NCBI GenBank assembly: GCA_046497275.1
Contig: JAWOFX010000187.1
Coordinates: forward strand, 1 to 14,513
DNA from: Promethearchaeia archaeon
GTDB taxonomy: Archaea; Asgardarchaeota; Lokiarchaeia; Sigyniarchaeales; SOKP01
Direction: 5' to 3'
DNA length: 14,513 bases
In this document: positions 1 through 13,763 of the stretch, in pieces
How positions within the stretch are numbered: the stretch's first letter is position 1
Layout: every line of letters begins with the position of its first letter
Made by a program: the position numbers and the translations under genes
Notes under the pieces: generated by a model
Seen by the model: the letters and a program-made list of their open reading frames with translations, nothing else
Database searches by the model: none
Told to the model about the DNA's origin: nothing

Positions 1-3000
1 GTTTAGTTCTGCTGATAAAGTATTCGGAATAAAGAATGCATCAATATTTCCTGTAGCGAATTGATATTCATATATTCCTGTTTGAATCTCATCTAAAGGA
101 TAGCTGGTTCCATCAATGGTTAAACTCACATCTGCATTGGTTAATAATTGACTTCCATTGGTCGGATCTCTCAAGGTGATACGGATAGTTAAGGTTTCTC
201 CTTGGACAATATTTGTTTTTTTATTTGGAAGATCTGTAGCCTCAATCACTCTTTTCTGTATATTTAGAGTATAATGACCTACTCGTAATTCATAATTATC
301 CCTCTTTATATAAATCCATATGGAATACTCTCCTAATTCTCTAGTTTCTGTATCAAAATCTAAAACATATAGAGAATCCTCATTTTCAATTAAATCTCCG
401 ATTCCTTGATCACTTGTTGAATACCATTCATAATAGGCAGTTTGAGCTTCCGATATTCTATTCCCCGTTAAATTATCTTTATATTCAAATGTAAAATTTC
501 TTGCTTCAAATATCCATATCTCTGGAATATCTTGAATCTGTTTTTCTCCATTAATGGTTGTTGGACGTTCTAAAATCTTTAAATTGAAATAATCCTCTTT
601 TGACTCATAACTTTCGCTAGAGACACTTAATTCAATTCTATATTCTGCCGCATCCGCCAATGAAGTATTAATGTTAATGTAATAGTATCCGGGATTTTCT
701 GGATCTTCTAATGCATTACCAAAACCATAATCCCATTCATATGTAAACATTTCTGCTGTTAATAGTACATGTTCTCGTGTATTAAAATAGCCTAAGGAAA
801 CATTTATTACTTCACCATAATACTGTTCAATTTTTCTAGATTCTAATGGTTCAAATGTTTCATAATCATATATAGAGATATTAGTTGGTATTTCGTTTAT
901 ATATATAGGTATTAATAGTGCATCAGGAGGTGTATAACCTGTCTTTTCCGCAGTTATTATTATATAATATGACTTTCCTCCTTTTAGATTTACTTCACTG
1001 GTATTTAAGGTTGCATCAAATATACCAGAAAACTCTTCATATCCACTAAGATCTATGATTGGTCCATAGGGACTCCATCCTGCGTCTCTAAATTGCATAT
1101 TAATACTATCAGGAGTAGCTAAATTAGTAGTTACATTAATTGTAGTTGTGAAATTTAAAGTGATCGTTATATTATCACTCCAATATACATCGGAAGTGAA
1201 ATTTGAAGGATTCAATGAAATCAAATTTAAATTGGTTTGGAAATTCTCAATATTTAATCGTACTTCTAAATTATAAAATGATTGGTAATCTAATGTAATA
1301 TTATAACCTTCATTTTGTCCATAAGTTATGTCTTCTACATCAAAATCGTAATTTGCATCATAAAACTCTACTAAAACCGTATAATTTCCCCACTCGCCTA
1401 CTTTATTATTAAATCCATAGAAACGTGCTAAACCACTTTCGTCTGCACTTATCATTGCGACGGGTGTATCACTAGTAGGATTACCAGTACTATTATACAC
1501 CTTAACTAGAGCATTCTCAATAGGATCTCCACTTTCCCATTCTGTCACATTGAAATCGATTTTCGAGAGATTTATCCCAACATGTATATCAGTAGATTCT
1601 ACATATACCAAACTTACTGTACCATTAGCTCCTGAGCTATCATGTTTTTCTAAAATTAATTCTATTTTTTCTATATTTTTAGTGTAATTATATTCAAAGG
1701 AATAAGCATCTTTATTATCTGATGCTGAAAATTCACTAGTATGTACACTCGTCCATGAGGATTCTCCAGCATATTGTACTCGTACTTTAAATTCAGTTAT
1801 ATAATCTACAACACCACTTAAACTTATATTAAATTGTGAAATGTAATTGCCAGAATCAGGTGAAAATTCTTCATTTGCTTCCACATAATTTACATCGATT
1901 ACTTTTATATAAGAAAAATCATCAACATTTTTCGATTCTTGAGTGTATTTGGGTTTATCGGGGTATGTTCGGCTAACTGACCCGGTATTGACCATAAGAT
2001 GATTTTTATTATAATTAGATCCTTTTGGTAATTTAGTAGAATCAAAATAGACAGAGTAATTATATGCAGATTGATTAATCCATCTAATTGCTGCTAAACC
2101 TTCATTAAGAGAAACATTTCCAACAATCTCACTCTGATTGTAAAGCTCTACAAATCCATAATTTAAAGCATCTCCATCATAATCTGTTGCATTAAAATTA
2201 ATTGTCCACAAGTTAGTTTGGACTACTAATTCATGTTCTATTTTATTTTGATTTTCTAAATAAGCAACTGTTTCGGTTTTTCCTCCGATAATACCATTTT
2301 GAGTATACTCAACTGTTATATTATAGACTCCTGTTGGAATATTATTAAAAGTGATTTCTCCATATTCATTTGTAGATGCATTTTGATTGAGAAATGGTTC
2401 AGAATTATTTGAGATATATACTTGAGCATTTGGGATTCTAAAACCATCAATATCAACACAAGTGACTTTAAGTTCAGCATATTCAATGATTCCAACAGAA
2501 AATGAAGGCTCAGTTTCCGAATATTTTTTATTCCAAAGATATTCTGTTGGTATAGGGTACACTTTTCCACCATCTGCTGGGTCCCATCCAAGTCTTGAAA
2601 CGGCGCCTCCCCCCTTTTCATACCATTCATATTTGATTGGAACAACGGAAGAGAAAGAATAAGATCCCGAATGTTCACGTGGAGCTTGATCAAACCAAGC
2701 ATCAATAACCTGTGTTTCATTAATCCATAAGCGGCTACCGTCATCTGTATATACATAGAAAATATGATTTCCAGATCCTTTATTTCCAATCCAACCTTCC
2801 CATCTTATACTCACATAATCGGCTAGGTTTTCCCAAGAATTTTCGGAATTTATCACCACTGTTCCACTACCCCAATTAAAATCCACATCTTCATAGGTAT
2901 CAGTACCCTTATATGTTTGAAAATTTATTCCTGCATAGTAAAAATATCTTAATCCAGAATCCATGGTGTTATCGATACTACTTTCATCCACTGCCGCATC

Positions 3001-4870: not shown

Positions 4871-4973
4871 GCAGATGTAGCCTAGCCTGGTAAGACGCCG
4901 GCCTCGAGAGGTTCCTATACCTAAGAAAGCCGGTGCGTGAAAGCGCGCGAGGGTTCGAATCCCTCCATCTGCG
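4871..4973 (+). tRNA. tRNA-Ser(CGA) with long variable arm and a canonical 37/38 intron; CCA not encoded
   Basis: Acceptor stem GCAGATG/CATCTGC with discriminator G; anticodon stem CCGGC/GCCGG; anticodon CGA at 4905-4907; variable arm GCGT-GAAA-GCGC; T arm GAGGG-TTCGAAT-CCCTC. Confidence 0.96.
4909..4927 (+). other. 19-nt tRNA intron with relaxed bulge-helix-bulge (BHB) motif
   Basis: Bulges AG^A (4907-4909) and AA^A (4926-4928); central helix CTCG/TAAG with one C-A mismatch; intron stem GGT/ACC. Removal gives the 7-nt loop CTCGAGA. Confidence 0.88.
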
Positions 4974-7614: not shown

Positions 7615-8835
7615 TTATTTAATAATGTATTGGCTCGATTTATCGATTGCATCTCGAATAAGTGATTTGATTTTTAAAGAATTATACATTTTTTTCACAG
7701 TCTCTGAATCAAATTTTTGGTTTGTTGGTTTGAATTTACAGTAGTCAATGTGATTCAGATTATTTGAAATCTCTTTTATATCCTTTTTAATTCTTTCAGA
7801 ATCAAACCCTACCAGAGGGGTAAAGATAGGATGCTGAGAAAAGAGATAATTAAGGGATATAGAGTCTAAATCAATCTCATCGTTACAAGAATTTAAATTA
7901 TTAAAATTAAGTCCATCAGAGAATCCTCTAATATATTTTATTTTAGTTTGAAAATCCTCACTTAATTTAGCTATAATTTCAAATCGGATTAATCGACAAA
8001 GAGAACAAAGATATTCTTTTTGTCCTAGTTCTTCCTCTACAAAATCTAATATCGGTAAAAGATTTATTATTATAAGACTAAACTTAGAAAACGGAGTGTA
8101 ATTAAAAATCTCTTCCCAATTAGCAATCCTTTTATCTACTAAATCTTCTGTCTCTGAAATATTAAATAATACTGGATATATTACACAACCTCGCCGCATT
8201 AGTAAAAATCCTGCAATTAAATCACTCAAACGACCGATATCCATGACTCCAATTTTTTTTTTATATTCTATTGGCAACCCCTCCCATTTTGTTTCGATTA
8301 TATCAGTAAAAAGATAAGAAAATTGGTTTCTAACTTCAATATATATTATTTTATTGGGATTGCTTAAATTAACTTTTAAGTTTAAATGCGAGAAATTATC
8401 TAAAAGAATTTTTCCAACTTTCTCTGCGACATCCTGAGAACTAAAGTTATGTTTTCCGGATCTTTTTACTCTTAAAGCAAAACTATCATCTTGCTTGAAA
8501 ATTAAATCACCTATTTCAATCGCTCTCTCAGAGATATTTTGTATTCTATTTGATGTTCTTAGGGCAGCACTTAAAGAGTGTACACCAAATGCTTTAGATA
8601 TAACCTTTATAGCTTCTTTGATAAATTCATGTTTAAAAAAAAAGAGGATTCTAGCCGAATCATCAGTGATTTGATATTTTGTATAAGGTATTTTTTCTCT
8701 TTCCAACATATTTTGAATATTTTTAATCAAGATTTTTAGCATTCTCATCTTAACTTTCATTGATTTTAACCAGATCTCTCCACTATATCGAACTAAGATT
8801 AGATTGTATGATTTATGGAAAGTGATTTGTCTCAT
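7615..8835 (-). CDS. thiI: ThiI-like (THUMP + ThiI domain) tRNA sulfurtransferase homolog with a degenerate PP-loop
   Basis: N-terminal ILVRYSGEIWLKS; THUMP segment SFALRVKRSGKHNFSSQDVAEKVG...VNLSNPNKIIYIEVR; LMRRGC; CSLC; YCKFKP. The SGGxDS motif is replaced by IGRLSD, so the symbol indicates homology only. Confidence 0.82.
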   Translation of the reverse strand: MRQITFHKSYNLILVRYSGEIWLKSMKVKMRMLKILIKNIQNMLEREKIPYTKYQITDDSARILFFFKHEFIKEAIKVISKAFGVHSLSAALRTSNRIQNISERAIEIGDLIFKQDDSFALRVKRSGKHNFSSQDVAEKVGKILLDNFSHLNLKVNLSNPNKIIYIEVRNQFSYLFTDIIETKWEGLPIEYKKKIGVMDIGRLSDLIAGFLLMRRGCVIYPVLFNISETEDLVDKRIANWEEIFNYTPFSKFSLIIINLLPILDFVEEELGQKEYLCSLCRLIRFEIIAKLSEDFQTKIKYIRGFSDGLNFNNLNSCNDEIDLDSISLNYLFSQHPIFTPLVGFDSERIKKDIKEISNNLNHIDYCKFKPTNQKFDSETVKKMYNSLKIKSLIRDAIDKSSQYIIK

Positions 8836-12249: not shown

Positions 12250-13215
12250 GTGGAAATAAATATGTCGATTGATTGGCAAAAAGCCGAGGAGAGGCCCGAT
12301 AAGTCCCAAAAGGTTGATGGTAAAGCTCTTTTAGATTTACGTGCCAAGATTAACGATCTAGAGAAGCAATTAGCAGAAACAAAAAATAACTTATCAGAAA
12401 CGGAAGCTGATTTAACTTCTACTAAAAGTGAATTGGAACAGAGAACAAACAATCTCGAAACCACTAAAAATGAATTAGAACAGACTAAGAACGAGTTAGA
12501 ACAAACAAAGCAAAAATTTGAAGTAAAAACCGCTGAACTTAACTCATCTATAGCGCAAAAAGACCAGAGAATCGAAGAATTAAATTCACAAGTTACTGAA
12601 TTAAATCAAAAAATTGAAGATTATAATCAAACTCTTGGAGACCTCGAAGAGAATTTAAACCAACTTTCAGAGTTGTCTAAAAATTCTCAAGAAAGAGCAT
12701 CTACTCTTGAATCTGAATTATCTCAGGTTAAACAAGAATTAAGAGAAGCGAATCAAGATATTGAATCCAAAGAGCAGAAAATATCTGAACTCGGATCCAA
12801 GGTTGAGCAATTAAGTTCTGAACTGGATACAACTCAGAGAGAAAAAGTTTCATTTGAAACTAAAGCTGGAGATTTAGAAAGTACCCTTACCCAAAAAGAG
12901 GAGGAGATGGCAGAATTACACGAAGCGTTAGAAGAGCAAAAAGAAGCGATCAATGCTCAAGCAGCGAAGATAGAAGAACTCGAAACAGAATTAAGTGAAT
13001 ATAAACCTCCTGAAATTGGCTCGGGTGGATTTGATGCCGAAGAACGTATCACATGCCCAATGTGTGGGGCAGTAGGACAAGATATTAAAACTGTAGAGGA
13101 TAAATCTAAAGTTTTGAGTTATGTTGGCCACATACCCATGTATGCAAAAACTGTTTTCTAACTCAGAAAACAATTGTATAAACATGTGTGTAAAAAATGT
13201 GGCTATGAGTTTTAA
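12250..13215 (+). CDS. Long coiled-coil protein with C-terminal CxxC...CxxC zinc ribbon, proposed as join(12250..13149,13180..13215), 311 aa (307 aa if ATG 12262 is the start)
   Basis: About 230 aa of heptad-rich E/K/Q/L sequence, then CPMCG at about 13114-13128 by translation order (ITCPMCG). The track ORF stops at TAA 13159-13161, but the same frame resumes with KHVCKKCGYEF* (13180-13215), which supplies the missing second Cys pair. Confidence 0.85.
12421..12525 (+). repeat. Degenerate 21-nt (heptad) tandem repeats encoding TK(S/N)ELEQ
   Basis: actaaaagtgaattggaacag (12421), actaaaaatgaattagaacag (12463) and actaagaacgagttagaacaa (12484), with more diverged units at 12442 and 12505. Confidence 0.75.
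13150..13179 (+). other. Candidate 30-nt archaeal BHB-type mRNA intron carrying an in-frame TAA
   Basis: Central 4-bp helix GCAA (13144-47)/TTGT (13174-77); bulges AA^A (13148-50) and AT^A (13178-80); perfect 8-bp intron stem TGTTTTCT/AGAAAACA; exon-exon helix CATGT (13137-41)/ACATG (13182-86). Canonical cuts restore the reading frame. Confidence 0.72.
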
Positions 13216-13763
13216 CTAAACCATTTTTTTCATTCTTTTCTTTTTTAAAAACTCTACAATCATTAGAGATTTTTTATTAGAAAAATTTTTTTTATGAAAT
13301 TTTTTTTTGAGTTTATTAATCTTGATGAGTATAATTCTTCTGGAGAGATTAATTGATATTATCATATCCATTTTTATCAAACATATACCAAATGTCAAAT
13401 ACCTCGATAAGATTGTCCTTTTTTAAAGTCCTCTTTAAATCCTCAGTTTTTAATAATGTGATCTTTTTATTTTTCAATTTTTTTTCCTTTTTTGACATTT
13501 CTTTTGAATGATAATATCCTTTCTTTCTTTTTATCTTTCAATACTTTTAAATCTCCTACTAAATTAATGTACTTTTCATTATAATTCAGTAAGGAACTAT
13601 TTAAATAACTTTAAAATTTACACTATGATTTGAATTAATAAGATCTAAATGTTTTAGTTAAAATTTTTTATTTCTTTCTTTTCTTTTAATGATTCTATTT
13701 CTAAAGCATAGATATCTGTTTGTTTAATCAAAAAAGAAAATAAAAAAAAATTAATAATATGGA

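Follow-up and report, generated by a model that had tools for sequence, protein, structure and literature searches.

Essentially the only archaeal protein-coding gene so far documented to carry introns of the bulge-helix-bulge (BHB) type is cbf5 of the Crenarchaeota, whose introns are reportedly also treated by Watanabe in 2002 and Yoshinari in 2006. In the Desulfurococcales and Sulfolobales, the introns of the cbf5 precursor messenger RNA (pre-mRNA) are 16-44 bp long and possess mostly relaxed motifs that are cut between the second and third bulge residues (PMC2738675). The subject of this report is a 30-nucleotide (nt) insert at positions 13150-13179 of a 14.5-kb contig, referred to here in its entirety as the window, from a Promethearchaeota (Loki-type) Asgard archaeon. 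The insert interrupts a gene for a coiled-coil/zinc-ribbon protein and is very probably an archaeal BHB intron that would be excised from pre-mRNA by EndA cleavage and RtcB ligation, such that the locus apparently extends the mechanism known from cbf5 to an unrelated Asgard gene. The literature searched contained no description of Asgard mRNAs with BHB introns, crenarchaeal cbf5 being the known mRNA precedent. Membership in the cbf5 intron family itself was rejected, because the host gene encodes a Promethearchaeota-specific coiled-coil/zinc-ribbon protein and is not a cbf5/dyskerin homolog.

Resemblance to the cbf5 introns extends to a relaxed BHB at the intron borders, predicted cuts between the second and third bulge bases, a presumed dependence on hetero-oligomeric EndA, and a patchy presence among related species. 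Unlike cbf5, the host is a coiled-coil/zinc-ribbon gene of the phylum Promethearchaeota (Asgard) that is interrupted at three separate sites across genomes, and whereas cbf5 is essentially the sole case in Crenarchaeota, the genome studied here has such introns in at least 12 verified genes. Splicing of the cbf5 introns was shown with cDNA and cleavage assays, whereas for the window intron we infer splicing, that is, cleavage and ligation in vivo with EndA as the enzyme, from sequence. With the BHB introns of precursor transfer RNA (tRNA) and ribosomal RNA, the window intron shares two 3-nt bulges set 4 bp apart, flanking helices, the predicted cut positions, and EndA and RtcB encoded in the same genome. 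It differs from tRNA introns in that it sits in an mRNA, with no tRNA body to aid recognition, and in that the intron carries a stop or a frameshift; in such a host the exon helix has to be made of codons and draws on synonymous sites. HAC1 and XBP1 likewise undergo non-spliceosomal mRNA splicing at stem-loops, with RtcB-type ligation and an altered C-terminus, but their nuclease is Ire1 rather than EndA, they possess twin 7-nt loops, and they are stress-regulated, whereas the window intron is most likely spliced constitutively. Short structured, stop-containing inserts that are absent from the protein are also found in T4 gene 60 and as the byps of Magnusiomyces mitochondria; such bypass elements, in contrast, are never removed from the mRNA and depend on a take-off codon that matches the landing codon, a feature that was tested in the window insert and not found.

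An interrupted coiled-coil/zinc-ribbon gene

The window belongs to a draft metagenome-assembled genome (MAG) of 3.85 Mb in 188 contigs, 98.9% complete and designated G000. An open reading frame (ORF) at 12250..13161 on the plus strand encodes a long coiled coil, then ...ITCPMCGAVGQDIKTVEDKSKVLSYVGHIPMYAK, then TVF, and ends with a TAA at 13159-61; downstream of this TAA the unchanged frame reads LRKQLYKHVCKKCGYEF and closes with a terminal stop at 13213-15. A preliminary description of this DNA had reported the same arrangement, in which the frame passes from ...PMYAK into TVF and a stop and then resumes in frame. Because orthologs begin MSIDW, the ATG at 12262 is the likely start. The predicted gene structure is as follows.

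12262..13149, plus strand: exon 1, 296 codons from ATG 12262 to ...GHIPMYAK, including the first zinc knuckle, CPMC; defined by the ORF and by ortholog starts (MSIDW)
13150..13179, plus strand: putative mini-intron of 30 nt, absent from about 125 orthologs; its deletion restores the invariant YAKK..CxxC, and homologous introns of 29-31 nt occur in metagenomes
13159..13161, plus strand: in-frame TAA within the intron; translation of unspliced mRNA would stop at ...YAKTVF
13180..13215, plus strand: exon 2, KHVCKKCGYEF and a TAA stop; CKKC forms the second zinc knuckle, and all 17 orthologs compared keep C55 and C58

The position of the junction is set by protein homology. A search with the predicted spliced C-terminus (62 residues) covered 154 genomes from the order; about 125 orthologs proved to be uninterrupted, with a span of 186 nt and 79-92% identity to the predicted spliced product, and only six carriers were found, in which the span is 216 nt and includes an internal stop. 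An alignment of 17 orthologs shows no variation at C20, C23, Y49, A50, K51, K52, C55 and C58; removal of the 30 nt therefore recreates the family consensus exactly, whereas K52 and the second CxxC are missing if the RNA is read unspliced. Deletion of 13150-13179 yields ...MYAKKHVCKKCGYEF (YAKKHVCKKCGYEF), identical to the ortholog consensus, and deletion of 13151-13180 gives an identical product because both flanks are A. Two expectations of the preliminary description were borne out here, namely that the deletion completes a CPMC...CKKC zinc ribbon and that intronless relatives match the predicted YAKK..CxxC product. The six carriers are split over three insertion sites, here called A, B and C, within one 45-residue domain; the window insert lies at site C.

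The host protein, with a predicted spliced length of 307 residues, is specific to Promethearchaeota. Searches against Pfam returned only coiled-coil noise and sub-threshold zinc-ribbon matches, and therefore no family name can be assigned; similar clusters in the Atlas are uncharacterised Promethearchaeota proteins, and a protein database search for records derived from spliced transcripts found three distant hypothetical Promethearchaeota proteins only. An AlphaFold model of the C-terminal 62 residues of an intronless ortholog has a predicted local distance difference test score (pLDDT) of about 86-91 over residues 21-62, and a fold search with that model gave weak matches (E > 0.5, template modeling score 0.4-0.47), nearly all of them to zinc-ribbon proteins (Rpp21, Rpb9, TFIIS, ZifS). 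The modelled fold of the C-terminal domain is thus consistent with a zinc ribbon, not proof of one. Between G000 and its sister species G002, both of which carry the intron, exon 1 shows a nonsynonymous divergence (pN) of 0.155, a synonymous divergence (pS) of 0.74 and a dN/dS of about 0.06, and exon 2 is intact; the gene is thus under purifying selection, that is, alive. A paralog of the zinc-ribbon family, at G001:C390:2829-2993, possesses an internal TAA in the match and may contain a further mini-intron.

RNA fold of the insert and the proposed splicing pathway

The RNA fold of the insert is a slightly relaxed BHB, composed of the following elements, all on the plus strand.

13144..13147, plus strand: central BHB helix, 5' strand GCAA (exon 1), partner 13174-13177; 4/4 pairs in all six site-C variants
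13148..13150, plus strand: 5' bulge AAA, predicted cut after A13149 (cut rule from PMC2738675)
13152..13172, plus strand: intron hairpin, a perfect 8 bp (13152-59/13165-72) with a 5-nt loop AACUC at 13160-64
13174..13177, plus strand: central helix, 3' strand UUGU (intron), partner 13144-47
13178..13180, plus strand: 3' bulge AUA, predicted cut after U13179, followed by a single pair, A13181-U13143, and the unpaired A13142
13132..13141, plus strand: exon-exon helix, 5' strand; 13137-41 pair with 13182-86 (5 bp) and 13132-35 with 13188-91 (outer 4 bp)
13182..13191, plus strand: exon-exon helix, 3' strand (exon 2), partners 13137-41 and 13132-35

Two 3-nt bulges thus lie on opposite strands with a 4-bp helix between them (pairs G.U, C-G, A-U and A-U), the 3' side being relaxed, and the motif is flanked on both sides, by the 8-bp hairpin and by the (5 + 4)-bp exon-exon helix. 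Every base pair that the preliminary description had listed is present, including the mismatch and the bulged A13142 that it named as imperfections, and its contention that the EndA rule removes precisely the frame-restoring 30 nt also holds on the sequence: standard cuts after the second base of each bulge excise exactly 30 nt and give the conserved product. The BHB structure coincides exactly with the junction set independently by protein homology. The unconstrained minimum-energy fold of the region has an energy of -16.5 to -16.6 kcal/mol (z = -3.8), a stability equalled by 0 of 200 shuffled sequences. At a 30-nt spacing, a fully paired (4/4) central helix together with a hairpin of at most one mismatch occurs by chance at 1,692 of 7.7 million genome positions (2.2e-4; 30% GC), and only 126 of these positions (1.6e-5) also have an exon helix of 5 bp. 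A self-splicing group I or group II intron was also considered and rejected: an Rfam scan of the window gives one tRNA only, and no ribozyme core could be accommodated in a mere 30 nt.

Enzymes appropriate to such a structure appear to be encoded by the host. G000 possesses two EndA-domain paralogs (C46:30059-30664 and C168:8025-8627, both on the plus strand) and two RtcB ligases, and the protein encoded on C46 has as its nearest counterparts the catalytic subunits of the crenarchaeal heterotetrameric EndA (3P1Z_B, 3AJV_B), which provides a candidate endonuclease for a relaxed BHB alongside an RNA ligase. Asgard EndA is reported to be an (alpha-beta)2-type enzyme, with a loop that gives relaxed BHB specificity (PMC5829648), and most Asgard genomes possess two EndA paralogs together with heavy, repeatedly gained tRNA introns (bioRxiv 10.64898/2026.10.13.758758).

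In the pathway that we propose, the GCAA at the end of exon 1 would pair, after transcription, with the UUGU at the 3' end of the intron, while the intron body would fold into the 8-bp hairpin and the exon ends would pair together, so that one 3-nt bulge would be exposed on each strand, with 4 bp between them. A hetero-oligomeric EndA would then cut after A13149 and U13179, the second base of each bulge, and RtcB would join the exons and probably circularise the intron. The predicted junction in the ligated RNA joins ...GCAAAA to AAACAUGUG (...GCAAAA|AAACAUG...). The mature mRNA would encode the 307-residue coiled-coil protein with a complete four-cysteine zinc ribbon (CPMC...CKKC), whereas unspliced mRNA would yield a protein ending ...YAKTVF that lacks the second zinc knuckle. 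The preliminary description had also suggested that the internal stop makes splicing an on/off switch. This suggestion found no support and was set aside; the polymorphic distribution of the inserts looks more like that of recently gained neutral or selfish elements, and, most likely, the intron is an element of this kind that is constitutively spliced rather than a regulatory switch.

Related inserts in the same gene

Among the genomes of the order, site C (YAK|K) is occupied in G000 and in the sister species, G002. When metagenome contigs were scanned with a degenerate pattern (YAK, a gap of 24-36 nt and K(H/N)VCKxCGY), five additional carriers (L033-L037) were uncovered, each with an intron exactly between YAK and K. 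L033 and L035 are nearly identical to the window, and their introns differ at just two unpaired positions, loop base 13162 and position 13173, which faces the C.A mismatch. The intron sequences of L034 (30 nt), L036 (29 nt) and L037 (31 nt) are divergent. With the register dictated by the protein junction, the central helix is 4/4 paired in all six site-C variants, the hairpin measures 7-8 bp and its loop 5 nt, and all six, after removal of the intron, translate as ...SYVGHIPMYAKK[H/N]VCKKCGYEF and a stop. For the 29-nt variant L036, the BHB fold is itself the minimum-energy fold.

The assembly of G000 is a draft MAG in 188 contigs, and an insert that breaks a reading frame might be regarded as an error of assembly or binning. 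The site-C insert recurs, however, in at least four independent assemblies (G000; G002, which is SHMW01 isolate BC3; Ga0102944; and Ga0209918), with two single-base variants, and an artefact is accordingly an extremely improbable explanation.

Covariation among the variants follows the BHB structure. Five sequences can be aligned in register; pairing holds in 97.8% of their cells, and four hairpin pairs have changed on both sides, a number reached by 2 of 500 shuffles and compared with 0-1 in slid controls. In L037 the third central pair has gone from A-U to G-C: the exon codon GCA has become the synonymous GCG, and the opposing intron base has changed too. Exon-exon helix 1 is 100% paired in five sequences, and over the two flanking helices 100% and 95% of cells are paired. 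The exon flank is identical among carriers at synonymous sites that vary in intronless orthologs, which would fit selection on the exon-exon helix. Structure has thus been kept through compensatory change at site C, and at site B as well (see below); variable inserts of 29-31 nt with compensatory stem changes, which the preliminary description had anticipated among relatives, were found in the form of the four hairpin pairs and the one central pair.

The lengths of these homologous inserts also bear on whether the window insert is handled by the ribosome, either through read-through of the stop, which would add 10 residues, or through programmed bypassing as in T4 gene 60 and the yeast mitochondrial byps. 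An AAA codon before the insert and another after it, with a hairpin and a stop between them, superficially resemble take-off and landing sites. Nevertheless, the 29- and 31-nt inserts shift the frame, as do the 32-nt insert in EF-1alpha and the 31-nt insert in iorB described below, and read-through and a tolerated 10-residue insertion are therefore excluded. A hop from AAA 13147-49 to AAA 13180-82 would produce YAK-HVC, in which one lysine of the invariant YAKK is missing; the stop lies three codons past the putative take-off codon rather than adjacent to it; and the inserts at sites A and B and in EF-1alpha have no matched codon pairs. Ribosomal handling is, on this evidence, very unlikely indeed.

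A further alternative is that the insert is disruptive and is not spliced, leaving a truncated protein without the second zinc knuckle or a young pseudogene. The internal TAA would terminate translation, and because the host protein has no assigned function and several paralogs, its loss could be tolerated. We regard this outcome as decidedly unlikely, since exon 2 is intact and encodes invariant residues, purifying selection acts on the gene in two species that both carry the insert, and four divergent lineages retain the site-C insert with compensatory changes and an intact exon 2; similar inserts, moreover, occur in the single EF-1alpha gene and in RpoA'.

One feature of site C extends beyond the paired region. 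Positions 13120-13236 of the window (117 nt, comprising the intron, both exon flanks, the stop and the start of the 3' untranslated region) are 99% identical to L013 (G002:C56), whereas elsewhere in the gene synonymous sites between G000 and G002 are saturated (pS 0.74). Constraint on RNA structure explains part of this identical block, and the remainder may be due to recent gene conversion or to a lateral transfer in which the flanks travelled along with the intron.

Sites A and B are each occupied in two genera by stop-containing inserts of 30 nt, located as follows.

Site A (CP|MC), L018:1565-1594 in G007 and L030 at about 190-219 in G064: 30-nt inserts
Site B (HIP|MYAK), L031 in G149 and L032 in G098, minus strand: 30-nt inserts

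At site B the central helices are perfect (UUCC/GGGA and UUCC/GGAA), and the hairpins show two compensatory A-U to G-C changes. Sites A and B share the local target CCAA|TGT (Pro-Met codons), and each is occupied in a single genome of genus g2 and a single genome of g11, although the majority of genomes in these genera have no insert there.

Inserts in other genes and the weighing of BHB splicing

At least 12 genes of G000 were verified to contain inserts with BHB-type architecture of about 30 nt, among them EF-1alpha and RpoA'. The inserts share the build of the window's, with a length of 29-32 nt, a 4-bp central helix, A-rich 3-nt bulges and an AU-rich hairpin of 8-10 bp. Those located are listed below by contig of G000.

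C83, about 19112-19143, plus strand: EF-1alpha (single gene), 32-nt frameshifting insert in the P-loop, GHIDHG|KSTMMG
C83, about 1644-1673, plus strand: RpoA', 30-nt insert with a TAA, GHFGH|IELARP
C130, about 8760-8790, plus strand: TFS-like gene, 30-nt insert, from motif continuity
C140, about 93-123, plus strand: iorB, 31-nt insert, from motif continuity
C59:8285-8316: ABC Walker B, LDEPT|TGVD, from motif continuity only
C45:12870-12898: small GTPase DxxGQ motif, WDIGG|QQRF, from motif continuity only
C171:12136-12166: phosphorylase, DKHS|TGGV, from motif continuity only
C98:30530-30559: lsrF, IAGG|KKIPE, from motif continuity only
C111:36426-36455, minus strand: UbiA-type prenyltransferase, DxxxD|KINRP, from motif continuity only
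C105:26519-26548, minus strand: thiolase-like gene, from motif continuity only

The EF-1alpha insert has a central helix AUGG/CCAU and bulges UAU and AAA, and standard cuts restore DHGKST; in 35 relatives the N-terminal 77 residues are encoded without a break, and in the sister species, which is one of them, they are 100% identical. Because essential genes such as EF-1alpha and RpoA' cannot all be dead, some mechanism of removal must exist. The EF-1alpha N-terminus at G017:C144:5327-5515 also has an internal TAA in the match, and may represent a further mini-intron. The window intron itself has no second copy in the G000 genome by BLAST, and is therefore not a member of a sequence-repeat family.

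The preliminary description had proposed a scan of the genome for similar short BHB inserts in coding sequences. Genome-wide de novo BHB scans of G000, which used a strict motif, a motif based on the hairpin, rescue of ORFs and filtering by codon usage, recovered several convincing cases by eye; a reliable total of mRNA introns cannot be derived from them, and the counts per intron length follow chance expectation for a genome of 30% GC, show no peak at 30 nt, and leave real introns inseparable from chance.

Those counts are one of several observations that weigh against BHB splicing as an account of the window insert and its class. In a control with adjacent coding segments, frame-restoring junctions numbered 86 against 74 and 71 non-restoring ones, an excess of about 13 that is not significant. 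Within the window, a C13151.A13173 mismatch lies at the base of the hairpin, and the 3' side is not a clean 3-nt bulge, since a U-A pair and an unpaired A follow AUA and a 2x4 internal loop is an alternative reading of the same bases. Without constraint, the fold favours a 6-bp helix with a 2-nt bulge, and the BHB-constrained fold, at -13.6 kcal/mol, is 3 kcal/mol costlier. The site-A introns have the same 7x7 geometry and a central helix with only 2/4 pairs, and therefore not every insert of the class is a convincing BHB.

Such departures raise the question of whether the insert is removed from RNA at these same positions by an enzyme other than EndA and RtcB, for example another structure-specific nuclease that recognises hairpins, although we know of no other candidate enzyme for such an excision. 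Beyond the 2/4 central helix of site A, sites B and C have a 4-nt 3' loop, and all of the inserts consist of a very uniform hairpin of about 30 nt with a 5-nt loop, which is not a known requirement of EndA. Against this, junctions that follow the EndA rule are exact in independent cases (six at site C, two at site B, and those of EF-1alpha, RpoA', TFS and iorB), and relaxed motifs are cut by hetero-oligomeric EndA in cbf5 (PMC2738675); we therefore consider a different enzyme quite unlikely. A BHB intron removed by EndA and joined by RtcB accordingly stays by far the most probable reading, and the suggestion of the preliminary description that an intron of this type occurs in an Asgard gene unrelated to cbf5 draws support from the orthologs, the homologous introns, covariation, selection, the enzymes present and the interrupted essential genes.

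The three sites in one 45-residue domain, the differences in presence between sister species and the essential genes that are hit lead us to favour, with some reservation, the broader view that this locus is one tip of a lineage-wide population of BHB mini-introns of about 30 nt that is colonising protein genes of Loki-type archaea. The mechanism is known from cbf5, and its occurrence in at least 12 genes of an Asgard archaeon, including essential ones, would surprise specialists. If RNA data bear the assignments out, annotation of these genomes by standard gene callers is systematically wrong, with essential genes appearing truncated or split; splicing is an obligatory part of mRNA maturation in these archaea; and relatives of the eukaryotic ancestor both tolerate and accumulate introns in coding sequence, which bears on the origin of intron-rich genes. 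Were the colonisation to be real, the closest archaeal relatives of eukaryotes would routinely need the tRNA-splicing machinery to obtain translatable mRNAs, and the 117-nt block of identity would hint that introns spread between genomes by recombination through their exon flanks. The locus provides a good test case, since a single intron is available in four divergent natural alleles of 29-31 nt, and intronless alleles exist as well.

Introns are also evident in the tRNA genes of G000. The sole Rfam match in the window is a tRNA-Ser(CGA) at 4871-4973 on the plus strand, with a 19-nt intron at or near position 37/38. Default ARAGORN finds no tRNA in the window because introns are disallowed, whereas Rfam and intron-allowing ARAGORN find the tRNA-Ser. 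Run on all of G000, intron-allowing ARAGORN reports only 26 tRNA genes, 14 of them with introns and some doubtful, and many tRNA genes of this genome are probably hidden by non-canonical or multiple introns.

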